From NCBI GenBank assembly GCA_014859205.1, contig JACUUR010000002.1:1-56438 (forward strand): DNA of 56,438 bases, given 5' to 3'. This DNA is from Dehalococcoidia bacterium (GTDB lineage Bacteria > Chloroflexota > Dehalococcoidia > GIF9 > AB-539-J10). Shown one piece after another: positions 32,906-53,745 of this stretch. The notes below the pieces were generated by a model. It made no database searches. It was not told the DNA's origin and was given only the letters and a program-made list of their open reading frames with translations. Both the position numbers and the translations under genes were made by a program. Within the stretch, counting starts at the first letter, position 1. Each line of letters begins with the position of its first letter.

Positions 32906-33508
32906 ATGACATCTATCATTCTGGCAGGTGGGAGAAGCACCAGGCTGGGCCGGAGCAAGGCTCTCCAAGTTGTCGGGGACAGAACCCTGATACAGTGGGT
33001 TGTCGACCGCCTAGCCGTCCTGAGCACGGAGATCATCATAGCAACTGCCCATGGAGAGGCCATCCCCTGCTCGTCGCCCGTGACCATGAGAACTGTGGCG
33101 GATGTCTACCCCGACGGGGGGCCGCTGGGAGGGATCTACACCGGGCTGGCCTCTTCGTCTGGCGCCCGGGCCATCATAGTTGGCTGCGACACGCCCTTTC
33201 TGAACGTCGAGCTACTTGCTCATATGATGCGGATCTCACCGGAGTTCGACGTTGTGGTTCCGCGGGTAGGAGACAAGGTAGAGCCGCTATGCGCGGTGTA
33301 CTCCAGGCGCTGTATGGACACCATAAGGGGCCTGCTGGATGAGAACGAACTGAGAATCACCACGCTTTTTGGCCTGGTGAGCGTCAGATACATCGAGGTG
33401 TCTGAGATAGACACGTTCGATCCGGAGCACCTGAGCTTCCTCAATGCCAACAGCCAGACCGACCTGGAGAGGGCCAGAAGGCTGGCAGCCGAAAGAGGCC
33501 TGAGCTAG
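32906..33508 (+). CDS. mobA: Molybdenum cofactor guanylyltransferase
   Basis: 200 aa. IILAGGRSTRLGRSKA nucleotide-binding motif and VGCDTPFL. Its stop overlaps the convergent mvhD stop within CTAG (33505-33508). Confidence 0.8.
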   Translation: MTSIILAGGRSTRLGRSKALQVVGDRTLIQWVVDRLAVLSTEIIIATAHGEAIPCSSPVTMRTVADVYPDGGPLGGIYTGLASSSGARAIIVGCDTPFLNVELLAHMMRISPEFDVVVPRVGDKVEPLCAVYSRRCMDTIRGLLDENELRITTLFGLVSVRYIEVSEIDTFDPEHLSFLNANSQTDLERARRLAAERGLS

Positions 33509-33939
33509 GACTGACTGCCTACGGTGTCCCGCAAGGGACTGGGGCCGAGCTTCTTGATCTCCGAGACGAAATCGGTCACCACCTGGGCAAACCTCTGCCC
33601 CTCGGCGGCCGAGACCCACTCCAGCCTCAGCCGCTCGGACTCGATTCCCAGCTCAAGCAGCAGCTTCTTCAGCAGCAGCATCCTGCGCCGGGTCTTGTAG
33701 TTCCCCTCTAGATAGTGACAATCCCTGGGGTGGCATCCCCCTACAAACACGCCGTCAGCTCCCAAACGAAAGGCGTGCAGGATATACAGGGGGTCAACCG
33801 CTCCCGAACACATAAGCCTTATCATCCTCAAGTTGGGCGGATATTGAAGCCGGCTTATTCCGGCAAGGTCAGCCCCCGCATATGCGCACCAATTGCAGCA
33901 GAAGCCGATAATCTTGGGCTCAAAACTATCCGTCATCAT
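33505..33939 (-). CDS. mvhD: MvhD/FlpD-like [2Fe-2S] electron-transfer protein (copy 2)
   Basis: 144 aa. IIGFCCNWCAYAGADLAG...RLMCSGAV...VFVGGCHPRDCHY is the MvhD signature. ATG at 33937-33939 overlaps the hdrL TGA (ATGATGA). The track ORF start at 34143 is an extension. Confidence 0.85.
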   Translation of the reverse strand: MMTDSFEPKIIGFCCNWCAYAGADLAGISRLQYPPNLRMIRLMCSGAVDPLYILHAFRLGADGVFVGGCHPRDCHYLEGNYKTRRRMLLLKKLLLELGIESERLRLEWVSAAEGQRFAQVVTDFVSEIKKLGPSPLRDTVGSQS

Positions 33940-36900: not shown

Positions 36901-38411
36901 CGAGCGAAATCAAGAATCGAGGCTTGCCCCAGGGCAGTGATAACGGTATCAACGTCGACCATGAACTCCGAACCTGGAACCGCGACAGGGCGGCGACGTC
37001 CGCTGGCATCAGGCTCGCCGAGTTCCATCCTGACGCACTCCATCCCTGAGGTCCTCCCGCCTTCAATGATGATTCCGGTGGGGTTGGTCAGAAACACCAT
37101 CTCGATCCCCTCTTCCTCAGCACCCCTTACCTCCGAAGGCGTGGCCGGCATCTCGTCCCTTGAGCGCCGATAGATAACCTTTACGTCGGACCCCAAACGC
37201 CTGGCCACCCTGGCAGCATCAACCGCGGTATTGCCTCCACCCACTACCGCCACCCTCTGTCCCAGTTCAACCTCCTCGCCCATGTTGGCACGCCACAGGA
37301 AGTCGATAGCGTTGATAACCTGCGGTGAATCGCCTCCAGGGATGTCAAGCTTCGTACCACCATGAGCGCCGGTGGCGATGAACACGGCCTCATGGGATGT
37401 TCTAAGCGCCTCCAGTTGTATGTCCTCTCCTATTCTGCTGTTTGTCCTTATCTCGACTCCCAGTCTTCTTATGTAGTCTATCTCTTTGTTGAGTATAGCT
37501 TTGGGCAGGCGATACTCGGGAATGCCCACCCTGAGCATGCCTCCCGGTTCCGGCATGGCCTCGAATATGGTTACTTCATAGCCTGCCAGGGCAAGGTCGT
37601 GGGCTGCGGCCAGGCCTGCCGGACCGCTGCCGATAATGGCGATCTTCCTCCCGTTTCTGGTGATCTCGGGCACCTCGACAGCATCGATATCGATCTGGTC
37701 GGTGACAAATCTCTTCAGTTCCCTGATTGCTATAGAGTCATCCATCTGCGCCCGATTGCAGGCCTTCTCACAGGGGGCATAGCAGACGCGGCCGCAAACA
37801 ATAGGGAGCGGATTGGTGCTTCTTATCAGGTCATACGCTTCCTTGATCTTGCCGTCGGCGATCAACCTGGCATAGCCCTGAATATTCATGTGAATAGGGC
37901 AGGCGTCGCTGCAGGCTGCCTTACAGGGCCTGTCAGCCCGCCTGTCGATCACATAAGTGTTGGGCACAGATTGTAGGAAGGGGGTGTAAATCGCCTTGCG
38001 CTGCACCAAGCCCTGGTCGTACTCGTTCTTCATCGTAACCGGGCAACCCTGAGCACATAGGCCACATCCCGTGCATTTCGCTCCATCAACGAACCTGGCC
38101 TTCTTCTTCACCGATACTATGAAGTTGCCCGGCCGCCCCTTGATATCCAGCAGCTCAGAGTAGGTCAGAAGCTCAATATTGAGGTGTCTGCCGCACTCCA
38201 CCAGTTTGGGCGATAGAATACACATGGAGCAATCGTTGGTGGGGAAGGTCTTGTCCAGTTGGGCCATGACTCCGCCGATGGAGGGAGTCCTCTCCACGAG
38301 GTAGACATAGTATCCAGACTCAGCAAGGTCCAGCGATGTCTGAATACCCCCTATGCCTCCCCCTACGACAAGAACCGCTCCTACTGTGCCGTTTCCGTCT
38401 TGCTTATCCAT
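33936..38411 (-). CDS. HdrL-like giant flavoprotein: HdrA FAD unit with inserted GltD/NfnB-like NAD(P)H module, fused to a second complete HdrA unit
   Basis: 1491 aa. aa 1-160 are the HdrA core (VVGGGIGGIQ, SIGGVMAQLDKTFPTNDCSMCIL, CTGCGLCAQGCP). aa ~160-565 are GltD-like (CGRVCYAPCEKAC, IAIIGSGPAGL, VAVVGGGNTAVD, FAGGDAV). aa ~630-905 are the rest of HdrA (IQCVGSRD, YCSSVCC). aa ~928-1491 are a second HdrA (IGVFVCHCGVNIGG, ANIRDQCSWVH, VIGGGVAGM, IQCVGCRD, YCSRVCC, CTGCGICEAMCP, CKGCGTCCAACP). Confidence 0.85.
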   Translation of the reverse strand: MDKQDGNGTVGAVLVVGGGIGGIQTSLDLAESGYYVYLVERTPSIGGVMAQLDKTFPTNDCSMCILSPKLVECGRHLNIELLTYSELLDIKGRPGNFIVSVKKKARFVDGAKCTGCGLCAQGCPVTMKNEYDQGLVQRKAIYTPFLQSVPNTYVIDRRADRPCKAACSDACPIHMNIQGYARLIADGKIKEAYDLIRSTNPLPIVCGRVCYAPCEKACNRAQMDDSIAIRELKRFVTDQIDIDAVEVPEITRNGRKIAIIGSGPAGLAAAHDLALAGYEVTIFEAMPEPGGMLRVGIPEYRLPKAILNKEIDYIRRLGVEIRTNSRIGEDIQLEALRTSHEAVFIATGAHGGTKLDIPGGDSPQVINAIDFLWRANMGEEVELGQRVAVVGGGNTAVDAARVARRLGSDVKVIYRRSRDEMPATPSEVRGAEEEGIEMVFLTNPTGIIIEGGRTSGMECVRMELGEPDASGRRRPVAVPGSEFMVDVDTVITALGQASILDFARESGIQISRGGTIVTDGALASSVDGIFAGGDAVSGPSIAIEAIAAGKQAARSIDEYLRGEPLSPKEEERQLKKLSEVELAALRQRVPSRNRVPMKELDPEERIKSFEEVELGYSVSEAREEAERCLASQIEGCFQCQECAARCTAQAIEYEMQDEYLDLNVGAVVFAPGYDLFDPSVQYELGYRKYPNVVNSIEFERILGATGPYQGTLLRPSDLTPPQRIAFIQCVGSRDPSHNRPYCSSVCCTYAIKEAVIAKEHSTVPLDITIFFMDIRTHGKDFDKYYERAKEESGINFVRSKVYSIESADSSGDLVVKFATEDGTVTTERFSMVVLSVGFQSSPELVELARKGGVQINPYGFCQTQPFLPMTTSQPGIFVCGAFSAPKDIPETVVQASAAAGEISALLAPARGTLTRTKEYPPERDVSGEEPRIGVFVCHCGVNIGGYLDVPEVADYARTLPNVEYAERNLFTCSQDTQEKIKKAIEEYRLNRVVVASCTPRTHEPMFRETIRQAGLNPYLFEMANIRDQCSWVHMHEQEEATVKAEDLVRMAVAKAALIEPLTPVALPVNHRALVIGGGVAGMTSALTLAEQGFEVDLIERSNVLGGITRRIHFGLEGEDIQEFLDGLIHKVQEHPRIRVYTDTWIVDVHGYVGNFTTEVMRYRGRVVEKLEHGVTIIATGAEEYKPEEYLYGKDPRVLTQLELEEELLKKAPDIVNCDNLVMIQCVGCRDENRPYCSRVCCNRAINNALRLKEMKPDMNIYILYRDVRTYGFSEKYYEEARQKGVIFVRYDLENKPRVSQRRRDSRFLLGVETYDPVLGQNVVIDADILALSAAMVPSPEANELAMLYKVPLNQDGFFLEAHVKLRPVDFATDGVFVCGLAHAPKTIEESIAQAKAAAARASLVLVKDAVTGEGIVASVNEKICTGCGICEAMCPYVAIAVDREKGVSVVNAALCKGCGTCCAACPSGAVQQRGFTREEISAALSAALAGV

Positions 38412-38426
38412 AACAATACCTTCACA

Positions 38427-38894
38427 TTACAGCTTCTGCAGCACCTTCTTAGCCAGTTCGGCGGGCTCGAAATCGCCTCCCTGGGCTCTCGAGTCGGCGA
38501 CGCCGCTAACCATCTGGTGACGCAGCTTCTGGCAGAATACGTCGATCTCCCTGACCTTCTCCGGAAAGGACGGGGCTACGTACCCTTCTCTGACTGCCAT
38601 GCCTCTCAAAGCCTTCATGATATCGGCAAAATCAACGTTCTGAGGGCAGTGGGCCTGGCAGCTGTAACACTGAATGCAGAACCAGATCGTATCTGACGAC
38701 AAAACCTCTCTCCTCAACCCCAGAAGAACCATCCGGATTATGCGACGGGGGTTAAACTTCTGGTCTATGTCAGAAACCGGACAGCTGGCTGTACAGAGAC
38801 CACAGGCGAAGCAAAGCCTGATCCTCTCTCCTCCAGGCTCATCGGCAACGTCGTATTTGAATCTGGTGTCCAGTTCGTTCAAAGCTACAGTCAT
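38427..38894 (-). CDS. HdrC-like 2x[4Fe-4S] ferredoxin-domain protein
   Basis: 155 aa. CFACGLCTASCP and CIQCYSCQAHCP in the HdrC-type helical arrangement. AAGGAGG RBS. Confidence 0.7.
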   Translation of the reverse strand: MTVALNELDTRFKYDVADEPGGERIRLCFACGLCTASCPVSDIDQKFNPRRIIRMVLLGLRREVLSSDTIWFCIQCYSCQAHCPQNVDFADIMKALRGMAVREGYVAPSFPEKVREIDVFCQKLRHQMVSGVADSRAQGGDFEPAELAKKVLQKL

Positions 38895-38928
38895 CTTCGC
38901 CTCCTTGATGCCGTTCAGGCCGGAACCA

Positions 38929-39822
38929 CTACGCTAGTCCGGCGGCCTCCAGTATCTCCGGTACCCTGTCCTCCCGTCCGATAAACATGATGTGTACCCC
39001 ATCACAGACGTTCTGTTCCTTGATCTGCCTTATCAGGCGGGCAGCCATCTCTATGCCCTTGGCGACGCCGGTGCCCTTGGGGGCCTCGGCCAGTTCATCG
39101 ATCAGGGACTGAGGGATGAAGATGCCGGGAACATTCTCGTTCATATATGAGGCCATCTTCACGCCGATGACGGGTACTATGCCCCCCAGTATCTTTACGT
39201 CTTGATCGATCTTGCGGACGAACTCCGTGAACCTCTTGAGTTCATCGAGATCATAGACAGCCTGGGTCTGGATGAAATCAACTCCCGCTCTGAGCTTCTT
39301 CTCAACCTTGATGAGCTGGGGTTCAAGTGGATCCGACGAAGGCGAAGCAGATGTGCCGATACAGAAATCAACCGCCCCGTCCAGCTCATTGCCTGCCATG
39401 TCCTTGCCTGAACTCAGAGTATGTACAAGATGAATGAGCTGCACCGAATCGAGGTCGAACACCTGTTTTGCCTCTTTGTGGTCACCTACGTCAACCGAGT
39501 CGCCGGTGAGACAGAGCACGTTACTGATACCCCGGGAATAGGCAAACAGGAGATCCGCCTGAATGGCCAGACGATTCCTGTCGCGGCAGGTTATCTGCAG
39601 CACCGGCTCGCCACCGTGTTCTTTAATCAGAAGACAAACCCCCACCGATGGATAACGCATCACCGAGCTCTGATTGTCGGTCACATTCAGGGCGTCGACC
39701 TTATCCTTGAGAAGCTCAATATGCTCTATAGTCTTGGCCACATTGGAGCCTTTTCCAGGCGCGGCCTCAGCAGTTACCACGAATTTCTTTGTCTTGAGAG
39801 TTTCCCTAAAAGGCGTTGCCAT
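38929..39822 (-). CDS. metF: Methylenetetrahydrofolate reductase, MetF (MetV-associated type)
   Basis: 297 aa. FVVTAEAAPGKG, ALNVTDN, ITCRDRNR and LCLTGD motifs of the MTHFR TIM barrel. Confidence 0.85.
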   Translation of the reverse strand: MATPFRETLKTKKFVVTAEAAPGKGSNVAKTIEHIELLKDKVDALNVTDNQSSVMRYPSVGVCLLIKEHGGEPVLQITCRDRNRLAIQADLLFAYSRGISNVLCLTGDSVDVGDHKEAKQVFDLDSVQLIHLVHTLSSGKDMAGNELDGAVDFCIGTSASPSSDPLEPQLIKVEKKLRAGVDFIQTQAVYDLDELKRFTEFVRKIDQDVKILGGIVPVIGVKMASYMNENVPGIFIPQSLIDELAEAPKGTGVAKGIEMAARLIRQIKEQNVCDGVHIMFIGREDRVPEILEAAGLA

Positions 39823-39833
39823 TCATCACCCCC

Positions 39834-40493
39834 TTAAGCTCTGGCCGCCTGGACCCTGCCGGGCCTTTTGACCGCCCGGTAATTCTTGGGCGAGTAATAC
39901 TCACGCATCAGGTCAAGTCTACCCTGCTTCTCCAGCCTGCGATATATAAGCACCCAGCCACAATCCTTATCAGGGTCTATCTCGCACTTACCACCCTTCC
40001 TGGTACCGCCGCAGGGACCGTTCAGCAGCCCCTTGGCACAACGAACCATAGGGCAGACCCCCCCGGTTCGATCCAGCAGGCAGTCACCACAGGCGCCGCA
40101 CATCTCCACCCAAAGCCCCTCTGTCTCCGGCATGCCGATGAAGGTGGTGTTGACTGCGGGCAGAACTGGCTTGTCCTCAAACCGTTCAGCCATAGTCTGT
40201 ACTCCCGCCCCGCAGGCCAGCGAGAGCACTGCGTCAACCTGAGCCACCTGCTCGCTGAGCTCTTCTATCATCTCTTTCTCACACTGCCGCTCAACCGTTG
40301 CTTCGGATGTTACGATTTCATTTCCCTCTGCGTCGCGGGCCAGTCTCAGTTCTGAGGCGAGTATCCCTACCTCCTTCTCCCCGCCGGCCCAACACACTGC
40401 CACGCAGGTTGCACAACCTGCCACAAGCACTCTCTTGTAAGGGGCTAACTCCTGTCTGATCTCTTCCAGTGACTTCCGTTCAGCGATTATCAT
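39834..40493 (-). CDS. metV: MetV, MTHFR C-terminal-domain (zinc-ribbon / Fe-S) small subunit
   Basis: Cys-rich CGACGDCLLDRTGGVCPMVRCAKGLLNGPCGGTRKGGKCE...CGW is the MTHFR_C signature. ATG at 40493 with GGGAGG upstream. Overlaps the mvhD end by 14 nt. Confidence 0.75.
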   Translation of the reverse strand: MIIAERKSLEEIRQELAPYKRVLVAGCATCVAVCWAGGEKEVGILASELRLARDAEGNEIVTSEATVERQCEKEMIEELSEQVAQVDAVLSLACGAGVQTMAERFEDKPVLPAVNTTFIGMPETEGLWVEMCGACGDCLLDRTGGVCPMVRCAKGLLNGPCGGTRKGGKCEIDPDKDCGWVLIYRRLEKQGRLDLMREYYSPKNYRAVKRPGRVQAARA

Positions 40494-40884
40494 CTTGCCT
40501 CCCTGGACTCTGTGATGTTGCCTTTGTTGTCTCTTCTGTAGCTGCGACAAATTTATGGGGCGCATTCGGACTGAGGTTGACCATCACTGCAGATCTGCCC
40601 TCCAACCCGATCTCTTTCAATAGCATCTGGCAGTGTTTCACCCTTTCACCTGCTCTTATGTTCCCGGTAATATGATGACAAGCTCCATCTTCGCATCCCA
40701 TTACCAGCACCGCCGAGGCGCCCTTCTCAAACGCCCGCAGGATATGGATGACGTCCACCCGGCCGGCGCAGGGAACACGAACTATCCGCACCGCCTCCGG
40801 GTAATGAAGTCCCAGTTTTCCCGCCAGGTCGGCGGCCGGATAGGCAGAATGCTGACAACAGAAAGCTACAATAGCTCCCTTCAT
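40480..40884 (-). CDS. mvhD: MvhD/FlpD-like [2Fe-2S] protein (copy 1)
   Basis: 134 aa. IVAFCCQHSAYPAADLAG...VPCAGRV...VLVMGCEDGACHH. ATG overlaps the upstream stop as ATGA. The track ORF start at 41223 is an antisense-frame extension. Confidence 0.8.
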   Translation of the reverse strand: MKGAIVAFCCQHSAYPAADLAGKLGLHYPEAVRIVRVPCAGRVDVIHILRAFEKGASAVLVMGCEDGACHHITGNIRAGERVKHCQMLLKEIGLEGRSAVMVNLSPNAPHKFVAATEETTKATSQSPGRQDDNR

Positions 40885-42527
40885 CCTTCTCCCAAGGCCT
40901 CGATCTGGGCCAGCATCTGATCGTCTCTGTAGTCCTGAAACTCGATTGCCTTGGCCGGACAGATAGCGACACAAATGCCACAGGCGTAGCACGCCAGATC
41001 CGATATAGCGGCCACTTCCTTGCCACCATCTGTCCCCATCAACTGGATTGCACCGTGTGGACAGACACGGATGCAGGTTAGGCAAGCTACGCACTTCTGC
41101 GGGTCTGCCTTGACTCTCTCGATCTCCACCGCAATCGTGCCGGCAGACAGCAGTTCCTGTATGCTGACAACAGCGCAGGAGATATCGGCCAACAGCCGGC
41201 CGACGTCGGACTGGCCGCGGCACTCGCCCACAAAGAACAACCCCCGCTTCTCGGAAGCTACGGGATAGAGGTGCACGTTTTCATCCTGGTAGAAGCCCCG
41301 GGCGTCCAGGCGAACACCGAGTAGAGAACCCAGAAGCCGTGTCCCTTCAGATGGAAACAGGAGTTCCTCCGCCACCAGAAGCTCGCAGTTGACAACGGCG
41401 TCTTCACCCAGGAGGACATCTCTGGCCTCCACCGCTATCCGTTCGTTATCCGTGCTAACCTTCGGAGGACCGGAACACTTCACGAACACGACCCCACAAT
41501 CCCTGGCCTCCCGATACAGACGCTCTGCTCCCTGGCTATCAACCTTGACATCCTTGCAGAACACGTATACTTCACTCCCCCACGCTCTACGGGCTGCCAG
41601 AGCATTACTGAGGCTGGCAAGCGTGGAAAAGCGAGAGCTATCGTCCACAAAATCGAACACGAAACCTATGGCATCTGGCTTCGTGCCCGACAACGGGGCG
41701 CCCAGCATATCCCGAAGCTGCTCCTGGGAGACAATATTCATTCCGGAAACCGCCTCGCCCTTAGTTCCCGTTATTGGCGCCAGAGCAGACCCGGTACGGA
41801 AGCCGGTGGCAAGCACTATCGCCCCGAACTTGCGGCAGCGATTCTCCCCGTTCCTGCTCATGGTTACAATGAAGTCTCCCATCGTCCCCCTTACTGCCAC
41901 TATCCGGGCAGAGTTGATCATCTCGATGTTCTCGTCTCGCTCCGCCGCAGCTACCATTGAACTCATGTCTAATCGACACAAGCTATCCAATTCCTGATCC
42001 CCGCCTCCTGCGGTCCCTGCGTCTACAAGCAGAGTTGTACACACTCCCGTCGAAGAAAGCCGTAGCGCCGTGCTGAATGCCGAAAACCCACCACCAACCA
42101 CCAAAACGCCCCTTTCCACAGGCAGATCCTTCTTCTCTACCGGATGGAGCAGTCTCCCTCCGTTTACAGCCATCCTGACGAGTTCCACAGCCTTTGCCGT
42201 AACGTCACCTTCATGAGCCCAGGAGCATTGTTCCCTTATGTTTGCCATAGAGAGGAGATGCTCATTCAGGCCGGCATCTTCCAGTGCCCGCCATAGAACA
42301 TGTTCCTCGAACTCAGGAGAACATGCCGCAACAACCACCCTATCTATGTTCTCCTCCTTGATACGGGAGACCATCTGCTCCCTTCCTGCCTTGCTGCAGA
42401 GATTGGAGCTCAAGTTGACGCAGGCGACGCCGGGCATCTCCGTCACCCTGGCCGCAACGGCATCAAAATCAATATTCTTCATGCCTCCGCCGCAGTTGCA
42501 GAGGAAGACGCCTATCCTTGTTTCCAT
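40881..42527 (-). CDS. HdrA-like protein, second-unit type (N-terminal Cys domain + FAD-like domain + C-terminal 2x[4Fe-4S] ferredoxin)
   Basis: 548 aa. IGVFLCNCGGG, VVAACSPEF, ANIREQCSWAH, VVGGGFSA, CVACLTCIRVCP and CYACGICVAICP. Collinear with aa ~928-1491 of the 1491-aa protein. Confidence 0.75.
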   Translation of the reverse strand: METRIGVFLCNCGGGMKNIDFDAVAARVTEMPGVACVNLSSNLCSKAGREQMVSRIKEENIDRVVVAACSPEFEEHVLWRALEDAGLNEHLLSMANIREQCSWAHEGDVTAKAVELVRMAVNGGRLLHPVEKKDLPVERGVLVVGGGFSAFSTALRLSSTGVCTTLLVDAGTAGGGDQELDSLCRLDMSSMVAAAERDENIEMINSARIVAVRGTMGDFIVTMSRNGENRCRKFGAIVLATGFRTGSALAPITGTKGEAVSGMNIVSQEQLRDMLGAPLSGTKPDAIGFVFDFVDDSSRFSTLASLSNALAARRAWGSEVYVFCKDVKVDSQGAERLYREARDCGVVFVKCSGPPKVSTDNERIAVEARDVLLGEDAVVNCELLVAEELLFPSEGTRLLGSLLGVRLDARGFYQDENVHLYPVASEKRGLFFVGECRGQSDVGRLLADISCAVVSIQELLSAGTIAVEIERVKADPQKCVACLTCIRVCPHGAIQLMGTDGGKEVAAISDLACYACGICVAICPAKAIEFQDYRDDQMLAQIEALGEG

Positions 42528-42542
42528 CAATCGTTCCCCTGA

Positions 42543-43811
42543 TCAGCTATCGCAAGGGCTCGCAGCACACTCCAGCATCTCCAGTGCACTGGAGGCAGCA
42601 GCCATCCCATGAGCCACGGCATCAGGTATGTCCCTGGGGCCCTGACAGGTCCCGGCAAGGAAGATCCCTTTCACGGTGGTCTCATTCGAGCCGAACGGAT
42701 CCGCCGTAGCGTAGAATCCGTCGTCGGCCATATTGATGCCCAGGGTCCGGGCCAAGTCCCAGGAGTTCCTACTGGGGGAAATGCCCACAGAAAGGACCAC
42801 CAGGTCAAAGATGTCCCGGCAGACCCTGGTCTGGGAGATATCCTCAAACTTGACCTCTAGCTCTCCGGACGCAGTCTGCAGGATTTCGACGGGCACGCCC
42901 CGCACAAACCGTATGCTCCCCTTGTATTCCTCGTAAAACTGAGCAAAGCCTTTCCCTGCAGTCTGCAGGTCGATGTAGAAAATGGTTACCTCGGTGTCGG
43001 GACTGCGATGCTTGATAAGCCCTCCAAGCTTCATAGCATACTTACAGCACACATGTGAGCAATAACCATGATGCTTGTCTCTGGAGCCGACACACTGAAC
43101 GAAGGCAACCCTCCGGGGCTCCTCCCCGTTACTCCGAAGTCTTAGTTGGCCCTCGCGGCTCAGAATGTGCTCCACATCCAGGCCTGTCAGCACGTTGGGG
43201 TATCTGCCGTAACCCAGGGAGCCTTTCTCCCTGGCGTCAAAGACATCAAAGCCGGTGGCGACAATAACGGCCCCGACGTTCAACTCCTGCCCCTTTGCCT
43301 TGCGCTCGAGATCAATGGCCTCAGTGGGGCAGGTCTCACGACAAAGACTGCATTGTTGCCCGTTGAAGCGCAGACAACGTCCTTCATCAAGAACGTAGCA
43401 GAAGGGTGTCGCCTCGGCGGGAGGCGCATAGATCGCCACGGGGTCAGCGGGGCAGACCTCAGCGCAGAGGCCACAGGCTATACATCTCTCTGCATCGACA
43501 TACCCCGGCTGCTGAGTTATCTCAACGCGAAAGCTACCGGCCTCGCCGCTGAGCCTCTTCACTGTGGAGTTGGTCAGGAGCCTGATTCGAGGGTGGAGTA
43601 GCGCCTCTTTGATCTTGTCGGGCACCACACAGGCAGAACACCTGACACAGATATCCGTTGCCTTACAGCAAAAGCGGGCACTGTGTCCGCCAACCACCGC
43701 CTCCTTCTCCACCAAATATACGCTGACGCCGGCTTTGGCCAACTCCAGAGCAGAAGAAATGCCTGATATGCCTGAACCGATAACTAGAGCGTTCCTGCTG
43801 TCGGAGTCCAC
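42543..43811 (-). CDS. HdrA-like FAD/Fe-S protein, first-unit type (no GltD insertion)
   Basis: 422 aa. VIGSGISGISSALELAKAG, CIACGLCAEVCP, CSLCRETCP, VQCVGSRD, YCSHVCC. GTG start. Ends in TGA, in frame with the next gene. Confidence 0.8.
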   Translation of the reverse strand: MDSDSRNALVIGSGISGISSALELAKAGVSVYLVEKEAVVGGHSARFCCKATDICVRCSACVVPDKIKEALLHPRIRLLTNSTVKRLSGEAGSFRVEITQQPGYVDAERCIACGLCAEVCPADPVAIYAPPAEATPFCYVLDEGRCLRFNGQQCSLCRETCPTEAIDLERKAKGQELNVGAVIVATGFDVFDAREKGSLGYGRYPNVLTGLDVEHILSREGQLRLRSNGEEPRRVAFVQCVGSRDKHHGYCSHVCCKYAMKLGGLIKHRSPDTEVTIFYIDLQTAGKGFAQFYEEYKGSIRFVRGVPVEILQTASGELEVKFEDISQTRVCRDIFDLVVLSVGISPSRNSWDLARTLGINMADDGFYATADPFGSNETTVKGIFLAGTCQGPRDIPDAVAHGMAAASSALEMLECAASPCDS

Positions 43812-44251: not shown

Positions 44252-44643
44252 TGTCCTCCTTTGGAGAGAAGCTTCTCAACGCGCTCGAGAAGAATGAAGG
44301 GTTCAATGGGTTTTTCGATGTAGTCATCAACGCTCAGTTCATGGCCCAGCTCCAGCTCATAGCGCCGGTGACTGGCCTCCTCCCTGATTGAGCTTATCAC
44401 CAGGATAGGGACATCCGGATATTCCCTGTTCTGGCTATCCCGCAGTGCTTTCACCACAGCAAAGCCATCCATGCCCGGCATCAGGAGGTCCAGCAGCATT
44501 AACTGTGGCCTTTCCTCCTGCAAACGTCTCAACGCCTCATATCCGTCGCAAGCCTCAATCACGTCATACTGACGAGACCTCAGCACACTGGCAATCGCCA
44601 GCCTCATATCGGGGTCATCATCCACTATTAGGATCTTTGCCAT
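44248..44643 (-). CDS. Stand-alone CheY-like receiver protein
   Basis: 131 aa. KILIVDDDPD...LMLLDLLMPGMDGFAV with no output domain. Confidence 0.85.
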   Translation of the reverse strand: MAKILIVDDDPDMRLAIASVLRSRQYDVIEACDGYEALRRLQEERPQLMLLDLLMPGMDGFAVVKALRDSQNREYPDVPILVISSIREEASHRRYELELGHELSVDDYIEKPIEPFILLERVEKLLSKGGQ

Positions 44644-45796: not shown

Positions 45797-45923
45797 GGGC
45801 CGCCGAACATTATAGGCGCTTTTGGATGTAAATGCAAAACTATGAAGGCAGTGCAGTGCCCAGGTGTTGCCCGAAACCCGTCGTTCTGGCATACTGTATC
45901 GAAATCCCGCCGGGAGTTCGAAC

Positions 45924-46908: not shown

Positions 46909-49872
46909 CTACCACTTCTCCTGTGTTAGCCGCAACACCAGCCAGGTCCTCAGGCGTTCGTCCAGCTTGCCAACCCATGACTCTATCTTGCGTATATCTC
47001 CGCTCATGAGGGCGGCTCTCTCCTCCGAAGTCAGTTCGTATTCCTTCAGCGCCTCGGCCGGGTTCTCAGCCAATCGGGCCAGGAAGGCGTTGTCCCGGGC
47101 AGCTCTGTCAAGCACCCCCAGCACCGCATTCACCGCAGATACCTTGTACTCGGGGATCTTGGCCACAGGATCAAGGGCATCATTGGTAAGGATGTTTACC
47201 GCTGCCTCATGCCAGTGGAAAGGCATGAACACAACTCCGGGAGGCGATTTCTCGGTGATATGAACCGGCGTCTCAACTCTACCCCTCTTGGACGAAACCA
47301 CTACCTCGTCACCCTCAACAAGCCCCAGCTTGAGCGCGTCGTCGGGATGCATTTCCATTGCTCCGCCCGGACGCAGTTGACTTAGCACGTTAGCCCTGCG
47401 GCTCATGGTGCCTGTATGCCAGTGCTCCAGTATACGTCCGGTAGTGAGAACCAGAGGGTACCCCTTGGATACGGATTCGGCCGGCGGGGCATAACTCACC
47501 GCGTGGAACTTGCCCTTGCCTCGGGCAAAACCGTCCCGATAGAGGAACGGAGTGCCGGGATGCAGGGCATCCGGACAGGGCCATTGCAGGCCATCCCGAC
47601 CGAGACGGTCGAAGCTGACGCCGCCGTAGATAGGAGCTAGCGAGGCGATTTCCTCCATTATCTGGTCGGCACTCCGGTAGTCGAACGGCTCTCCCATCTT
47701 CTCGGCCAGGGAGCAGATGATCTGCCAATCAGGCCTGGCCTCGCCGGGAGGCATAAGCGCCTGCCGCACTTTCTGAATCCGCCTCTCCGTGTTGGTGAAG
47801 GTCCCATCCTTCTCTGCGAAGGAAGCGGCAGGAAACACCACATCAGCCATCCAACCGGTCTCGGACAGGAATATATCCTGAACCAGGAGGAAGTCGAGTT
47901 TGCCCATAGCCTGCCTGGCATGCTCAAGGTGAGGCTCGCTTAGCATGGGGTTCTCACCCATCACATACAGCCCTCTGATGTCTCCCCGGAGCACGCCGTT
48001 GGCAACCTCGGTAACCGTCACTCCAGCGCGGTCGCTTAGTTTGCGTCCCCAGGCGCATTCGAACTTCGTCCTGACGGCGGGGTCATCGACTCTTTGATAA
48101 CCGGGATAGACATTAGGCAGCGCTCCCATATCGCAGGCGCCCTGGACATTGTTCTGCCCCCGGAGAGGGCAGAATCCGGTGCCCTCCCTGCCCATGTTGC
48201 CGGTGAGTAACAGCAGGTTTGCCACACTCTTGACGTTGTCTGTGCCAGTCGTGTGCTGGGTTATGCCCATGCCGTAGAGAATGCAGGCGCTGTTGGCCTC
48301 TCCAAACAGCCGGGCTGCTGCCTCTATATCGGCCTGGCGCACCCCGGTTACAGACTCCGCGGTGGCAAGATCATACCCTTCCAGAAGCTGCCGTAATTCG
48401 TCGAAGCCCTCGGTACGCTCCCTGATGAAGTCCTTATCCTCAAGACCTTCTCTGAGGATTACGTGCATCAGGCCGTTGATGAGAGCAACGTCTGTGCCCG
48501 GCCTGTGGGCGAGTCTGACGCTGGCATATTCGCTGAGTTCGATGGAGCGAGGGTCAGCCACTATGAGCTTGGCTCCTGCCAACCTCACCCTTCGCTTGAT
48601 CATCGAGCCAATGATGGGATGACATTCAGTAGGATTGGAGCCGATCACGAAGAAGAGATCGGTCTTCTCGAAATCGGAATAAGAATTGGTCATCGCGCCC
48701 TGTCCGAAGGCGGCGATGCCCCCAACCACAGTAGAGGCATGGCACAGTCGGGCGCAGTGGTCGATGTTGTTGGTGCCTATCACGGCACGCACGAATTTCT
48801 GCATGACGTAATTATCTTCGTTGGTGCACTTTGCCGAGCTTAAGGCAGCGATGCTATCGGGTCCGTAAGCTTGCTTGAGACTTAGCAGCCTTTCTGCCGC
48901 CAGGCCAAGCGCCTCCTCCCAGGTAGCTTCACGGAATATCTCCTGTACCCGTCCGTTGTGACCTGCCTCCCGGGCGACGCCTGGCAAGCGGATCAACGGC
49001 GTCTTCAGTCTTTCAGGATGATTCACGAAATCATATCCCCAGCGTCCTTTTACACACAGGCTTCCCCTGTTGGCCGGCCCTTCGGAGTCGCCGCGCACCG
49101 ACACGATCCTGTTGTCTCGAACTCCCAGGTACATGGAGCAGCCCACTCCACAGTAGGGGCAAATGGTCTTGACCTCCTCAGCGGGTGGCTTCTCCCACTT
49201 GGGCGCCAGCGCCCCGGTAGGACATCGCGCCACACATTCACCACAAGACCTGCAAATCGACTCGGCGATCGGCCTGTCACCAAACGTGGCTACCTTTGCC
49301 GAGCTTCCCCGGAAGGCCAGATCAACAGCGCCGACCACGGCTATTTCGTGGCACGCCCGTATGCACCGGGCGCAGAGGATGCACTTGTTCGGGTCTCGCG
49401 TGAAGGCGGGATGGCTTCTATCCAGAGGTAGCACCTGAGTGCTTCTCCGTAACCGGTCCATATGCTCCTGCTCAACGCCTAGATATCGAGCAACCTTAAG
49501 GAGTTCACAGTCCTGGTTTCTGGTACAAGTTATACAATCCCCGTGATGATTGGCACTGATAAGCTCCATAGTCGTTCGCCGTGACCGAGTAACCCTGGGC
49601 GTGTCAGAATGCACCACCATGCCATCAGTGGCTGGTGTAGTGCACGAGCTAACCAGACCCCGCATGCCCTCGATCTCAACGACGCACAGGCGGCAACCTC
49701 CGTAAGGCTTGAGGTCAGGGTCATGACACAGCGTGGGGATGTAGATGCCAGCTTGCAGGGCCGCTTCCAGCACCGTAGCTCCAGCTCTGGCTATGACCTC
49801 GCTGTCATTGATCGTCAGCCTGATGACCTCCGCCTTTGCGTGATGGGTTTGCGCCGCGATAACTGTAGCCAT
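46909..49872 (-). CDS. fdhA: Formate dehydrogenase catalytic subunit, Cys-type, with N-terminal NuoG-like Fe-S domains and a ~70-aa C-terminal helical extension
   Basis: N-terminal 2Fe-2S (CRLCVVEI) and CILCARCIRAC, CRSCGECVARCP, CPYCGVGC clusters. Active-site HCARLCHAST has TGC at 48742-48744 where selenoproteins carry TGA. ATG at 49872 with AAGGAGG upstream. C-terminal tail ...FLARLAENPAEALKEYELTSEERAAL...QEKW. Confidence 0.9.
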   Translation of the reverse strand: MATVIAAQTHHAKAEVIRLTINDSEVIARAGATVLEAALQAGIYIPTLCHDPDLKPYGGCRLCVVEIEGMRGLVSSCTTPATDGMVVHSDTPRVTRSRRTTMELISANHHGDCITCTRNQDCELLKVARYLGVEQEHMDRLRRSTQVLPLDRSHPAFTRDPNKCILCARCIRACHEIAVVGAVDLAFRGSSAKVATFGDRPIAESICRSCGECVARCPTGALAPKWEKPPAEEVKTICPYCGVGCSMYLGVRDNRIVSVRGDSEGPANRGSLCVKGRWGYDFVNHPERLKTPLIRLPGVAREAGHNGRVQEIFREATWEEALGLAAERLLSLKQAYGPDSIAALSSAKCTNEDNYVMQKFVRAVIGTNNIDHCARLCHASTVVGGIAAFGQGAMTNSYSDFEKTDLFFVIGSNPTECHPIIGSMIKRRVRLAGAKLIVADPRSIELSEYASVRLAHRPGTDVALINGLMHVILREGLEDKDFIRERTEGFDELRQLLEGYDLATAESVTGVRQADIEAAARLFGEANSACILYGMGITQHTTGTDNVKSVANLLLLTGNMGREGTGFCPLRGQNNVQGACDMGALPNVYPGYQRVDDPAVRTKFECAWGRKLSDRAGVTVTEVANGVLRGDIRGLYVMGENPMLSEPHLEHARQAMGKLDFLLVQDIFLSETGWMADVVFPAASFAEKDGTFTNTERRIQKVRQALMPPGEARPDWQIICSLAEKMGEPFDYRSADQIMEEIASLAPIYGGVSFDRLGRDGLQWPCPDALHPGTPFLYRDGFARGKGKFHAVSYAPPAESVSKGYPLVLTTGRILEHWHTGTMSRRANVLSQLRPGGAMEMHPDDALKLGLVEGDEVVVSSKRGRVETPVHITEKSPPGVVFMPFHWHEAAVNILTNDALDPVAKIPEYKVSAVNAVLGVLDRAARDNAFLARLAENPAEALKEYELTSEERAALMSGDIRKIESWVGKLDERLRTWLVLRLTQEKW

Positions 49873-49888
49873 TGCTGCCTCCTTGTCG

Positions 49889-52800
49889 TTAGTCTTCCTC
49901 AAGGTCACATCTCAGGCACCGGCTCGCTTCCTCCATCGCCGCCTCCCTGCTCAGGCCGAGTTCGACCTCTGCAAAGCCGCCAAGGCGTTCGCATAAGGCC
50001 AACGTCGACACGCAGACCCGGTGTCTTTCACCTTCCTGGAGCTCGGGAAGTGCCTCCAGGTCTTCGGCCGGGGCCAGCACTTCATCTATTATGCCCGTAC
50101 CGCCCAGATACTTATCTATGGAAACCGCCGCCTGCCTTCCAGCGGCAATAGCCTCGATGACGGTGGCAGGGCCGGTCACCGCATCTCCACCCGCAAACAC
50201 GCCATCCCTGCCTGTAGCCAGAGAGTCAGGGTCTGACTCAAACGTGTTGCCGCCTTTCAGCGACAGGCCAAATGTACTGGCAGCCTCCGGCATCTGACCG
50301 ATAGCAGCGATAATGGTGTCAAATGCCATGCTGAACTCACTGCCCGGAAGCATAACCGGGCGCCTTCTGCCGCTGAAGTCCGCCTCCCCGAGCTCCATGC
50401 GAACGCAGGTCAGGTCCATGGTGCCGCTTCTTCTCTCAATTCTGGCGGGGGCAGCCAGGAACTCAAACTTCACGCCCTCATGTATTGCCTCCTCTATCTC
50501 CTCACTGCTTGCCGGCATCTCATCCCTGGTGCGACGGTAGATAACTGTCACTGCGCCGGCACCGAGGCGGAGTGCACTGCGAGCGACATCGATGGCCGCG
50601 TTGCCACCCCCGACAACAGCCACGTCCCTGCCTGCACTTACCGGGCTGCCACTGTTTACCTCCCTGAGGAACGCGACGCCCTCTATCACTCCGGGGCATG
50701 CCTCTCCCTCAATCCCCAGTTTGGTGCCTTGATGGGCACCGATAGCCAGGAAAACGGCATGATAGCCATCTCCAAGAAGGTCATCAACAGAGCTAATGCG
50801 TGTGTTTGTCCTTATCTCAACGCCTGCGCTCCGTATATCCCCGATCTCCTGGGCCAGTATTTCTCTGGGCAGACGATACTCGGGAATTCCATATCTCATC
50901 ATGCCTCCAGGCTCGGACAGCGCCTCGAAAACGGTAACACCATGCCCTCGCCTGGCCAGGTAATAGGCGGCGGTCAGTCCGGCCGGGCCAGCACCTATTA
51001 CTGCAACTCGTTTCCCGGTGGGAGCAACTGCCCTGACTTTCAGTTTCCAGAGCCCGTTTCCTTGTTCAGCCGCAGCTCGCTTAAGAGCCCTTATGGCGAT
51101 GGTTTCGTCGACCTGTCCCCTTCGACACTTCGCTTCACAGGGATGCGGACAGACATGCCCGCAGATGGAGGGGAACGGTATCTTCTCCCTGATTACAGCC
51201 AGAGCAGAATCAAACTGCCCCAGGCCGATGAACCGGAGATAACGGGGCACATCTACGCCGGCAGGACAAGTATGGCTGCAGGGAGCCTTGACCAGTCCTT
51301 TGCACACGGCAGCGGAACAATGGTGTCTCTTGATATGATCCTCGTATTCCCTACGAAAGTGACGTATACTGGTAAGCACAGGATTAGGAGCCGTTTGTCC
51401 CAGGCCGCATAGGGAACCATCCTTGACCGATTCTGCCAGCTCCTCAAGCAACTCAATGTCATCAGGCCTACCCCTGCCATTGGCTATGTCCTCCAGTATG
51501 TCAAGCATCTGCTTGGTGCCCCAGCGACAGGGGATGCATTTGCCACAGGACTCGAGTTGGGTGAAGGAGAGGAAGAAACGGGCCATGTCAACCATGCAGG
51601 TGTCCTCATCCGTCACCACCATACCTCCCGAGCCCATGATCGATCCTGCCGCAGCCAGGGACTCATAGTCGATAGGCAGATCGAGCAAGCTGGCCGGGAG
51701 ACAACCTCCCGATGGTCCGCCGGTCTGTACTGCCTTGAAGCGCTTGCCGCCGGGCACGCCTCCTCCGATCTCGAAGATAAGCTCCCGCAGCGTAACTCCC
51801 ATAGGTATCTCTATCAAACCGGCATTGGCGACCTTGCCTGTCAGAGCGAAGACGGCAGTGCCCTTGCTCTTCTCAGTGCCGATGCTCGCGTACCAGTCTG
51901 CGCCCTTGCCTACTATCACGGGAATGGAGGCAAGGGTCTTCACATTGTTGATATTGGTGGGCTTTCCCCACAGTCCTGATTGTGCCGGAAAGGGCGGACG
52001 ACTACGGGGCATACCCCTCTTTCCCTCAATCGACGCCATCAATGCCGTCTCCTCACCGCAGACAAAGGCCCCGGCACCCTCCTTGATATGCAGGGTGAAA
52101 TCGAACTGCGACCCCAAGATATTCTTACCCAGGAACCCTTTCTCGCCAGCCTGCCCGATGGCAATACGCAAACGCTTCATGGCTAAGGGATACTCAGCGC
52201 GGCAATACACATATCCTTCGCTGGACCCGATCGCATAGGCAGCAATGGCCAGCCCCTCTATAACTGTATGCGGGTCAGCCTCCATGATGCTCCGGTCCAT
52301 AAACGCGCCGGGGTCGCCCTCGTCAGCATTGCAGATCACATACTTCTGGCTTCCGCTTGAGTTGCGACAGAACTCCCACTTGAGGGCCGTGGGGAAGCCA
52401 GCACCACCCCGACCTCGCAGGCCCGACCGCCTGATCTCCTCGATCACCGCCTCGGGAGTCATCTCGAACAGCGCCTTCTTCAGCGCGTCATAGCCGCCGG
52501 TGGCGATGTAATCCTCGATCCTTTCAGGGTTAATGTGTCCACAGTTACGCAGGATTAGCCGACTCTGCCTCTTATAGAAGTTGACTTCTCGATAGGTCGC
52601 GATTGCTTCGCCAGTGGCCGGGTCTTGATAGAAAAGACGCTCCACCCATATGCCCCGTTTCAGATGAGAGTTGACGATCTCGGCCGCATCCTCGACCCTA
52701 ACATGAGTGTAGAAGATACCTTCAGGCTCGACAACCACTATCGGTCCCTGCTGGCAGAAGCCATGGCAACCCGTGAAGTCCACCTCGACATTGCTCAGGC

Positions 52801-52930
52801 CTTCCTGACGCACCCCGTCCTCGAGTGCCCTGCGGATATCCTCCGACCTGGAGGACGTACAGCCTGTGCCCTGACAGACAAGCACCCTCATGCGCCCCCT
52901 GGAATCGACGCCCTGAATTCTCTCGATCAC
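49889..52930 (-). CDS. NuoF/HydB-like NAD(P)H-FMN subunit fused to a C-terminal GltD/NfnB-like FAD-NAD(P)H module
   Basis: 1013 aa. N-terminal thioredoxin-like 2Fe-2S (VCQGTGC...CHGFC). NuoF motifs [24 protein letters not shown]. aa ~540-945 are GltD-like ([43 protein letters not shown]). GTG start with GGAGG upstream, overlapping the nuoE stop. Confidence 0.85.
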   Translation of the reverse strand: [1013 protein letters not shown]

Positions 52931-53445
52931 TGCTTACCTCCGGAGTGCTGCAGTAGGTCAGTTGCCTTTCTGGGATTCATCTCGCCGTGTGTCTCATTGT
53001 TCACCACCATTGTTGGCGCCAGTGCACAGGCACCGATGCAGGCCACTGTCTCCAGACTGTATTCCAGGTCCGAGGTACTCTCACCCGGCTTGATGCCCAG
53101 ATGCTTCTCGACTTCACGGAGTATGCGAGGGCCACCCCGCACGTGACAGGCAGTGCCTCGACAAACCCTGATGATGTTCCGACCCGAAGGAACCAGCTTA
53201 AACTGGGCATAAAAGGTCGCTACGGCGAAGACCGTGCTTTCCGGCAGAGTGAAGAATCCGGCTATCCTCTTCATCGCCTGTTCCGGCAGATAGCCTAACG
53301 CCTGCTGAACTTGCTGCAACACGGGGATGAGTTCATCCTCCCTGCCTTCGCAGCCGGACAGTATCCTGTCGAGGCGTTCCTCAGCATTCACCCCCTGCTC
53401 AGTCTGGAGCACCTGCAAGTCTTGCGTGGTCGACGGGCTTATCAT
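52927..53445 (-). CDS. NuoE/HydC-like thioredoxin-fold [2Fe-2S] subunit
   Basis: 172 aa. IPVLQQVQ...RVCRGTACHVRG...ETVACIGACALAP is the NuoE cysteine pattern. Confidence 0.85.
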   Translation of the reverse strand: MISPSTTQDLQVLQTEQGVNAEERLDRILSGCEGREDELIPVLQQVQQALGYLPEQAMKRIAGFFTLPESTVFAVATFYAQFKLVPSGRNIIRVCRGTACHVRGGPRILREVEKHLGIKPGESTSDLEYSLETVACIGACALAPTMVVNNETHGEMNPRKATDLLQHSGGKQ

Positions 53446-53460
53446 GTTGCACCTCGCTGT

Positions 53461-53745
53461 TCACCATTTCTCCTGAGACAGCCGGCACCAAAGCCAGGTA
53501 GCTAGCCTGGTGTCTAGCTTGCCGATCCAGGATTCTATGGTTCTGATATCTCCGCTGGCCAGTGCGGCTCTCTCCTCGGCAGTCAAGCAGTAGTACTCCT
53601 TGAGAGCCTCGTGGGGGTCCTCGGCCAATCTCGCCAGGAACTCGGACTCGCTGGCCGCTCTCTCCAGGACAGCGACTAACTCGTCTCGACCTGGCCTTGC
53701 CTGCACCTCAGCCCCTTCGTGCGTTACTTGAAGCGATCTGGTCAT
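53461..53745 (-). CDS. Small helical protein of unknown function, paralogous to the C-terminal tail of FdhA
   Basis: 94 aa from the ATG at 53745 (GGGAGG RBS 8 nt upstream). ...FLARLAEDPHEALKEYYCLTAEERAALASGDIRTIESWIGKLDTRLATWLWCRLSQEKW aligns along its length with FdhA residues ~928-999. Confidence 0.6.
   Translation of the reverse strand: MTRSLQVTHEGAEVQARPGRDELVAVLERAASESEFLARLAEDPHEALKEYYCLTAEERAALASGDIRTIESWIGKLDTRLATWLWCRLSQEKW

Follow-up and report, generated by a model that had tools for sequence, protein, structure and literature searches.

The 56,438-nt stretch of a Dehalococcoidia contig analysed here (JACUUR010000002.1, hereafter the window) carries on its minus strand, at 46909-53745, an operon for a predicted formate dehydrogenase (FDH) whose diaphorase subunit is fused to a GltD-type flavoprotein module, in the very place where related electron-bifurcating enzymes hold their ferredoxin domain. 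We propose, at a probability of about 0.5, that the encoded enzyme is an FDH/CO2 reductase that couples to NAD(H) through FMN and to NADP(H) through FAD and lacks a canonical site for ferredoxin. The Bfu enzymes (HydABC, Stn/NfnABC and Fdh-Bfu) are the least understood bifurcating class, the low-potential exit from their FMN/cluster centre being debated, and the operon family would offer a natural experiment, with the ferredoxin exit swapped for an NADP(H)/FAD module and the remaining bifurcating core kept. It also bears on the electron supply for the first CO2-fixation step of the Wood-Ljungdahl pathway in uncultured Chloroflexota, and current labels such as 'NADH-quinone oxidoreductase subunit F' or 'FAD-dependent oxidoreductase' hide what seems to be a widespread formate- and hydrogen-metabolising module.

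The operon consists of four closely packed open reading frames (ORFs), all uninterrupted when checked: a small 94-aa helical protein with a domain of the NHLP clan (53461..53745; ribosome-binding site AGGGAGG, followed by an ATG at 53745), a 172-aa NuoE-like [2Fe-2S] subunit of the BfuC/HydC type (52927..53445; PF01257, 160 bits), a 1013-aa NuoF::GltD fusion, in which an FMN subunit of the BfuB type is extended at its C-terminus by an NADPH/FAD module (49889..52930; GTG start), and a 987-aa Cys-type fdhA product (46909..49872; ribosome-binding site AAGGAGG, ATG at 49872). An earlier note on this DNA, made from the letters alone, had described four translationally coupled genes; the four genes are indeed there, but the only overlap in the operon is a GTGA in which the nuoE stop meets the GTG start of the fusion gene, the remaining gaps measuring 15 nt (small gene/nuoE) and 16 nt (fusion/fdhA). 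The start of FdhA had also to be moved, since it most likely lies at the ATG at 49872 (987 aa) and not at the upstream GTG at 49908 that opens the maximal ORF (999 aa), so that fdhA would begin clear of the fusion gene. On syntenic contigs, the sizes called by gene finders are 94, 172, 1012/1013 and 987/988 aa. Scans for consensus promoters and terminators yielded no signal above the shuffle background, and neither the whole window nor the leader of the operon gave a match to Rfam, hence no molybdenum or tungsten cofactor riboswitch.

All the domains named in the earlier note for these proteins are recovered by the profile hidden Markov models of Pfam and NCBIfam, including the NuoE-like subunit and the complete GltD/NfnB-like module at the C-terminus of the fusion. 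In its first half, the fusion comprises a thioredoxin-like [2Fe-2S] domain (aa 10-87; 52670..52903; PF01257) with Cys19, 24, 55 and 59, followed by a NuoF core (aa 126-535; 51326..52555; TIGR01959, 514 bits) made of an FMN/NAD(H) Rossmann-like fold (Complex1_51K, aa 166-337), an SLBB domain and a four-helix bundle (NADH_4Fe-4S, aa 448-532) in which Cys462, 465, 468 and 508 are the predicted ligands of the B1/N3 [4Fe-4S] cluster. A linker with His532, Cys538 and Cys543 (51302..51337) aligns with the loop that forms the Zn (B2) site in bifurcating BfuB. Straight after NADH_4Fe-4S comes the second half, opening with a GltD/NfnL-type 2x[4Fe-4S] domain (Fer4_20, aa 538-623 in Pfam; core at aa 548-623, 51062..51289; PF14691, 79 bits) with Cys551, 555, 590, 594, 598 and 602, continuing with FAD and NADP(H) domains (Pyr_redox_2 at aa 641-931, whole region aa 641-943, 50102..51010; PF07992, 98 bits) that carry the motifs GAGPAG (646), GGGNAA (774) and YRRT (798), and closing with a C-terminal tail (aa 944-1013; 49892..50101) that ends in RCLRCD and aligns with residues 503-567 of NfnA and StnC, as far as their EASRCLEC motif.

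All predicted cofactor ligands, those of the NuoE cluster included, are invariant among 33 relatives from the window's own clade. In the fusion this holds for Cys19/24/55/59, for His532/Cys538/Cys543, for the B1 cysteines and for the RCLRCD tail with Cys1005 and Cys1008, as well as for the FMN-site motifs GLRGRGGAGFPT, NADEGDPGAF and CGEETAL, and the FMN module is predicted to be intact. The conserved Glu of CGEETAL presumably points to NADH, by analogy with complex I, and this residue alone suggests the assignment of NAD to the FMN. The passages of Katsyv et al. that were searched for determinants of NAD versus NADP at an FMN site held none that could be used. On the GltD side, GGGNAA and YRRT are recognised as NADPH-type motifs, conserved with the NADPH-binding modules of NfnA and StnC; the NADPH-type GxGxxA motif is treated in PMC7483475.

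The closest solved relatives of both diaphorase subunits are bifurcating. The NuoF half (aa 13-550) scores 830 bits against Acetomicrobium mobile NiFe-HydB, 746 against Acetobacterium woodii HydB, 700 against Thermoanaerobacter kivui HydB, and 686 each against Caldicellulosiruptor saccharolyticus NfnB and Sporomusa ovata StnB, HydB/NfnB/StnB chains overall ranging from 830 to 618 bits, as compared with 428 bits for the non-bifurcating FdsB. The NuoE-like subunit, which carries the four Cys for the C1 [2Fe-2S] cluster, likewise finds its best solved matches in C subunits of bifurcating enzymes (7t2r_C, 167 bits; 8a6t_C, 162 bits), FdsG (6tg9_G) reaching 92 bits. Because the scores of NuoF and NuoE against FdsB and FdsG are about half as high, the kinship is taken to lie with bifurcating Bfu enzymes and not with FdsBG. 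The GltD half (aa 544-1009) is in turn closest to the GltD-containing subunits of Stn/NfnABC, with 415 bits for NfnA 9bov_A, 408 for 9n5u_A and 375 for StnC 8oh5_C (the solved complexes are S. ovata StnABC, 8oh5; C. saccharolyticus NfnABC, 9bov; Thermococcus sibiricus, 9n5u), and scores lower against NfnL (305 bits for 4ylf_B, also 285 bits) and GltD (189 bits).

Where the fusion departs from canonical BfuB is in a single domain. In the alignment, it retains the N-terminal Cys19/24/55/59 and the B1 cysteines, and its H...C....C linker matches that of the canonical BfuBs P0132, P0133 and P0138, but no CxxCxxCxxxC motif is found anywhere in its sequence, whereas canonical BfuB carries two CxxCxxCxxxCP motifs (B3 and B4) after the Zn loop. 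Matches to HydB and NfnB chains end near residue 550, and the Fer4_20 domain of the GltD module starts at the same point. By alignment, the B3/B4 ferredoxin domain is absent and the GltD module stands exactly in its position. The His/Cys loop of HydB is a Zn site (PMC10021017), and B3/B4 form the low-potential path to ferredoxin and its docking site, are essential for bifurcation, and abolish it when deleted (Katsyv et al., PMC10021017; Feng/Schut et al., PMC11829005), while sites B2 to B5 serve to tell true Bfu enzymes apart from NuoEF enzymes that do not bifurcate (Schut et al., PMC9304861). Of the structural features given there for the Bfu family, BfuC, the FMN and B1 sites of BfuB, the ligands of the N-terminal domain and of the Zn site, and the BfuA chain are all present at the level of sequence, and the B3/B4 domain is not. 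The window enzyme is, on this comparison, derived from a bifurcating lineage, yet lacks one of the defining features of the Bfu family. The earlier note read its two flavin modules as the kind of architecture expected for NADH/NADPH confurcation or transhydrogenase-like coupling, in a candidate NAD(P)H-linked or bifurcating FDH: two dinucleotide sites are a fair reading, but bifurcation cannot be inferred, because B3/B4, reported as essential, is replaced by the Fe-S domain of GltD. That replacement had been overlooked, as had the Wood-Ljungdahl methyl-branch setting of the operon and the paralogy between the small protein and the FdhA tail, to which we return below.

The catalytic subunit is predicted to be an active one. 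FdhA matches TIGR01591 over its full length (835.2 bits against a cut-off of 666; NCBIfam) and contains the Pfam domains Fer2_4, NADH-G_4Fe-4S_3, a Fer4 dicluster (Fer4_Nqo3), Molybdop_Fe4S4, Molybdopterin and Molydop_binding. NuoG-like Fe-S domains occupy aa 1-235 (49168..49872), with a [2Fe-2S] cluster, a His-ligated [4Fe-4S] cluster (HHGDCITCTRNQDC) and 2x[4Fe-4S], which together with the [4Fe-4S] cluster of the pterin domain correspond in their motifs to a BfuA-type chain. The Mo/W-bis-pyranopterin guanine dinucleotide catalytic domain follows (aa 236-917; 47122..49167; TIGR01591) with Cys377, His378 and Arg571. As had been supposed, the codon TGC at 48742-48744 encodes the active-site Cys, which is Cys377 within CARLC-H-AS; Cys377-His378 (CARLCHAS) align with the metal-ligand Cys/His of solved FDHs, and the catalytic Arg571 (LRGQNNVQG) matches as well. 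End-to-end alignments are obtained with Methylorubrum extorquens FDH1 alpha (7vw6_A, 797 bits) and Rhodobacter capsulatus FdsA (6tg9_A, 751 bits), and the match to NfnA/StnC is confined to residues 110-585 (about 290 bits). FdhA is best described as a predicted Mo- or W-dependent FDH alpha subunit of the FdsA/FdhF type with an intact active site.

Could the fusion be an artefact of assembly or of a frameshift, or the operon be decaying? This is ruled out with near certainty by the open frames, by the invariant ligands, by synteny in the loci L084, L085 and L004 (L numbers denote fetched contigs carrying relatives of the window operon), and by a search of a 5.8-billion-protein collection, in which over 120 clusters, 70-85% identical, have the same architecture over their full length (1004-1025 aa). 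These clusters stem from JGI, ENA, NCBI and Logan assemblies that are independent of each other, and the few that are named read 'NuoF [Chloroflexota bacterium]'; the names of cluster members are generic, and no characterised relative was recognised among them. At least 14 more full-length fusion clusters, at 36-51% identity and some of them from Desulfobaccales, were found by exhaustive HMMER search of 50%-identity representatives. When GTDB species genomes were scanned with an alignment spanning the junction, the matches listed included intact junctions in Dehalococcoidia, Anaerolineales, Armatimonadota, Actinomycetota, Desulfobacterota, Omnitrophota, Bacteroidota, Planctomycetota, Zixibacteria, Ignavibacteriales and one Lokiarchaeon, the best among them being a Dehalococcoidia metagenome-assembled genome (MAG; 70% identity across the junction). 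In a neighbour-joining tree of the NuoF core, the fusions fall into partner-specific subclades mixed with plain BfuBs and separated by short internal branches, and this tree is compatible with a single as well as with a repeated origin of the fusion. The lone hint of decay sits in a relative, L001, where the FdhA tail persists as a frameshifted remnant.

Partner genes, identified by tblastn of parts of the window against all fetched loci, fall into three classes. FdhA adjoins the fusion in L001, L004, L006 (Dehalococcoidia), L008 (a deltaproteobacterium), L018 (Anaerolineales), L020 (Planctomycetota), L084 and L085, and NuoE-fusion-FdhA operons thus extend over Dehalococcoidia, Anaerolineales, Planctomycetota and Desulfobacterota, so that the pairing with fdhA noticed in the window is a recurrent one. 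In L002, L005 (Armatimonadota), L009, L012, L014 (Omnitrophota), L015 and L030, NuoE and the fusion are followed instead by the [FeFe]-hydrogenase HydA, the fusion counterparts being 51-61% identical to that of the window; annotations of HydA-linked loci include Armatimonadota, Chitinivibrionales, Omnitrophota, Prolixibacteraceae and Ignavibacteriales, among others. The third class is met in a Lokiarchaeon (L017, 7740-11435) and in a Bacteroidota MAG (L023, 7927-10233), where two genes lie behind NuoE and the fusion: one for an Fe-S protein of 235 aa resembling NuoG, and one for a 526-aa protein bearing the FMN-domain signature of glutamate synthase (PF01645). In the Lokiarchaeon, they are followed by a gene for glutamate dehydrogenase. 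Read from these gene arrangements, the BfuC/BfuB::GltD unit is a modular diaphorase predicted to serve several catalytic partners. True Stn-type layouts occur in L041, L043 and L055. Beside HydA in gut Lachnospiraceae, Acutalibacteraceae and Collinsella (L022, L024, L025, L026, L039) are short proteins made of the last ~90 NuoF residues (query aa 445-535, where the four-helix bundle lies) and GltD, which look like a truncated version of the fusion. Perhaps they represent the group A2 [FeFe] hydrogenases termed 'glutamate synthase-linked', which we take to carry a GltD-type module on a NuoEF-type diaphorase.

How does this arrangement compare with known enzymes? Stn/NfnABC, which has been purified and solved, combines a NuoE-like subunit, a NuoF-like subunit (thioredoxin-like domain at the N-terminus, FMN/NAD site), an FAD/NADPH module like GltD and a scaffold of the NuoG/FDH kind (PMC7483475, PMC10482914, PMC11829005). 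The earlier note credited characterised NuoEF-type modules with a single nucleotide site; this complex has two, an FMN/NAD and an FAD/NADP site. Its domain inventory is that of the window operon, and its chains are among the best solved relatives of all three window proteins, but its A subunit is the one that carries the GltD module, as an insertion between the [2Fe-2S] and NuoG-like domains, whereas in the window this module sits on the C-terminus of the B subunit and replaces B3/B4. Stn/NfnABC moreover keeps B3/B4 in its B subunit and has a pterin-free, inactive FDH-like domain (PMC10482914, PMC11829005), unlike the window FdhA with its predicted intact active site. In Fdh-Bfu enzymes, of which HylABC-FdhF2 of Gottschalkia acidurici is characterised and bifurcating and the type 1 enzyme of Carboxydothermus hydrogenoformans is predicted (PMC9304861), an FDH is likewise set on a BfuBC-type NuoEF core, and in the window the layout is that of type 1: FdhA, as the BfuA subunit, bears the pterin site together with clusters A1-A5. 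These enzymes differ in having one nucleotide site, B3/B4 and ferredoxin use, while the window fusion holds a second flavin/nucleotide module in the place of B3/B4.

The non-bifurcating, NAD+-dependent FdsABG(D) of R. capsulatus (6tga) and Cupriavidus necator and FDH1 of M. extorquens (7vw6), which supply the best solved relatives of FdhA, share with it an active site of Cys-His and Arg as well as a cluster chain like that of NuoG, but are without the cluster-binding N-terminal domain, the Zn linker and the GltD module, and FdsD is unrelated to the NHLP-like protein. Compared by their descriptions (PMC5736913, PMC7483475), Moorella FdhAB, Geobacter sulfurreducens SfrAB and Thermococcus litoralis NsoABC also have a molybdopterin/FDH subunit wired to a GltD-type module; in FdhAB and SfrAB, unlike the window, there is no NuoEF FMN module, and GltD is a separate subunit or inserted in A. 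On the hydrogenase side, Greening and colleagues modelled HydB of the archaeal group F hybrid [FeFe]/[NiFe] hydrogenase as NuoF plus a glutamate-synthase domain, with a guess at ferredoxin as acceptor (PMC11216029), and Nobu et al. list GltD-domain subunits ('HoxP') on Hox and HydBC modules in the supplement of PMC9751293. The partner in both is a hydrogenase and not an FDH, and the parts of these two sources that were consulted do not remark on the replacement of B3/B4. The paper on T. sibiricus NfnABC mentions NfnL-like domains in proteins annotated as FDH and FeFe hydrogenase (PMC12018979). A literature search for a described NuoF-GltD/FDH fusion returned related cases only, and one for Moth_2314 gave no match. 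Within the literature searched, the FDH-linked fusion appears to be new, while the domain combination of Stn/NfnABC and the NuoF/glutamate-synthase HydB were already known.

A further variant exists in a close relative, L085, where a 1349-aa FdhA (2734-6783, beside metVF) has GltD inserted after its N-terminal [2Fe-2S] domain, in the StnC layout; unlike StnC, its FDH active site is intact (CARLCHAP, RGQNNVQG). This protein is a candidate one-subunit NADPH-dependent CO2 reductase, and would support NADP(H) as a partner of CO2 reduction in the lineage.

The enzyme that we propose would be a soluble, cytoplasmic, Mo- or W-dependent FDH/CO2 reductase built on a Bfu scaffold and feeding the Wood-Ljungdahl pathway, in which FdhA, with its pterin site and chain of five Fe-S clusters, would act as the BfuA-type subunit, the NuoE-like protein as BfuC, and the 1013-aa protein as BfuB. 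Formate would be oxidised at the Mo/W centre and its electrons passed along the FdhA clusters to the FMN/B1/C1 centre, where a share would go to NAD+ through FMN and a share to NADP+ through the GltD clusters and FAD; CO2 reduction would be the reverse electron flow. A possible stoichiometry would be 2 formate + NAD+ + NADP+ = 2 CO2 + NADH + NADPH. Formation of the complex, the electron path, the NAD or NADP assignment of each flavin and the stoichiometry are all predicted from sequence.

Several points weigh against this proposal. Electron transfer from formate to NAD+ and NADP+ needs no bifurcation on thermodynamic grounds, and the retention of the N-terminal domain and of the Zn linker would then be left unexplained; both belong to the proposed ferredoxin 'trap' (PMC11829005), and ferredoxin may still participate. 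Since the fusion also pairs with a hydrogenase and with a glutamate-synthase-like protein, its role may be more general. An AlphaFold2 model of the whole fusion, built with the 33 relatives (at least 70% identity), reached a predicted local distance difference test score (pLDDT) of 65 and a predicted template modelling score (pTM) of 0.44, too poor to judge the packing of the GltD and NuoF halves.

An alternative that takes up the first of these points, coherent but unlikely, is a ferredoxin-dependent four-substrate bifurcating enzyme, FDH and Stn-type transhydrogenase in one complex, in which formate and NADPH would both act as mid-potential donors to NAD+ and ferredoxin. Ferredoxin would dock at the distal [4Fe-4S] cluster of GltD, as with NfnL in NfnSL, or at the trap formed by the N-terminal domain of BfuB and the C-terminal domain of BfuC. 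In favour of this reading, the branch of NfnSL that leads to ferredoxin is made up of the GltD-type [4Fe-4S] pair (compare PMC5736913), and the NuoE and NuoF halves fall into the bifurcating clade and keep the N-terminal [2Fe-2S] domain and the Zn linker, both missing from non-bifurcating homologues (PMC9304861). Against it, the nearest GltD relatives, those of Stn/NfnABC, serve as NADPH input and not as a ferredoxin site (PMC10482914), the canonical docking domain, B3/B4 with its Lys-rich loop, is absent from the fusion, and the operon is without a ferredoxin gene. A precedent for bifunctional Bfu enzymes exists in FdhFeFe-Bfu of C. autoethanogenum (PMC9304861), and the ferredoxin acceptor proposed by Greening and colleagues at the glutamate-synthase domain of the fused HydB (PMC11216029) would be a parallel.

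It is quite unlikely, in our view, that the enzyme is an uncoupled NAD(P)H-dependent FDH, with flavin sites that are independent ports on one Fe-S wire, or with the GltD site alone in physiological use and NuoEF mainly a scaffold, in the manner of the NADP-dependent FdhAB of Moorella thermoacetica or of SfrAB-type enzymes. GltD alone can evidently be wired to an FDH, as in the single-polypeptide FdhA-GltD of a relative; FDH-like catalytic and GltD-like NADPH subunits are paired in SfrAB and NsoC (PMC7483475), Moorella FdhB has an NADP-binding domain (PMC5736913), and coupling is not thermodynamically needed. The invariant FMN motifs, B1 cluster and NuoE ligands argue, on the other hand, that the NAD(H) site is in use, and the lineage holds the three-subunit form beside the simpler fused FdhA-GltD (L085), suggesting a distinct function.

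A bolder idea, which we hold to be very doubtful, is that BfuC/BfuB::GltD is a ferredoxin-independent bifurcating module with obligate coupling, in which a pyridine nucleotide takes over one of the branches at a flavin/cluster centre of the Bfu type, for example with 2 NADPH + NAD+ + CO2 = 2 NADP+ + NADH + formate. If true, exergonic transfer from NADPH to NAD+ would pull endergonic CO2 reduction, Wood-Ljungdahl organisms could produce formate with NADPH as sole donor, needing neither reduced ferredoxin nor H2, and in other phyla the chemistry of H2 or of glutamate synthase would be driven by this module too.

The first gene of the operon had been described simply as that of a small helical protein. 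A single-sequence AlphaFold2 model is indeed all-helical, at low confidence (pLDDT 61) and supporting 'helical' alone, but the protein also carries the NHLP-clan domain NF038399 (42.6 bits against a cut-off of 40; NCBIfam) and is paralogous, with 69% identity, to the 70-aa C-terminal extension of FdhA (46912-47121, or 46909..47121 with the stop codon; weak PF14407 match), which lies past the end of solved FDHs. The window, L084, L085 and L004 have both the free copy and the FdhA tail, L004 with two free copies (NHLP-like copies at 3405-3629, 3850-4074 and 10462-10677), and L006, L018 and L020 have neither; in L001 there is no free copy, and the frameshifted remnant of the tail lies at 15761-15883. 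From this paralogy and joint presence or joint loss, and from nothing else, we infer that the two probably form a helical docking or oligomerisation pair. Two other identities were considered and rejected. A precursor of a ribosomally synthesized and post-translationally modified peptide would have a core peptide, but both copies end with the domain (...QEKW), one of them is the tail of a 987-aa enzyme, and the neighbours are redox and regulatory genes with no maturation genes nearby. No similarity to FdsD was detected.

The surroundings of the operon include genes of the Wood-Ljungdahl pathway. A Wood-Ljungdahl methyl-branch cluster lies at 33505..43811 on the minus strand, with HdrA-like proteins, MetV, MetF, an HdrC-like protein, a 1491-aa GltD+HdrA-like protein and MvhD (Pfam), beside the gene named mobA in the earlier note, which does encode a MobA-like nucleoside triphosphate transferase for molybdopterin-guanine dinucleotide synthesis (32906..33508, plus strand; PF12804, 112 bits). 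A second gene for methylenetetrahydrofolate reductase (MTHFR) is convergent with fdhA, and a 2-oxoacid:ferredoxin oxidoreductase is nearby; synteny with L085 extends to this convergent MTHFR gene. In L001, whose fusion is 80% identical, NuoE-fusion-FdhA lies directly 3' of carbon monoxide dehydrogenase/acetyl-CoA synthase (CODH/ACS), cooC and metVF, and a mobA-like gene comes directly after fdhA. The Wood-Ljungdahl context in the window, L001 and L085 supports a role in CO2/formate interconversion for the pathway.

The 1491-aa protein (33936-38411, minus strand) contains Fer4_20 (aa 163-240), Pyr_redox_2 (256-549), an HdrA-like FAD domain around residue 1072 and a C-terminal 4Fe-4S dicluster, so that in the window organism GltD modules are attached to two separate redox complexes of one pathway. 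Signalling genes flank the operon on both sides. Divergent from it on the plus strand are a NarL/LuxR-type response regulator (53915-54598) and a PAS/HisKA_3 histidine kinase (54550-56067), both assigned by Pfam and found as the same pair in the same position in the syntenic L084 and L085; the two are candidate regulators of the operon. On the other flank is a cyclic nucleotide-binding histidine kinase (44618-45940, minus strand), with the MTHFR gene between it and fdhA. The arrangement of flanking signalling genes is kept in L085 and partly in L084. Further away in the window (14116-18372, minus strand), and unrelated to the operon, are genes with GLUCM-like_C, CT_A_B, CT_C_D, LamB_YcsF and D-Glu_cyclase domains, of the D-glutamate cyclase-like, 5-oxoprolinase type.

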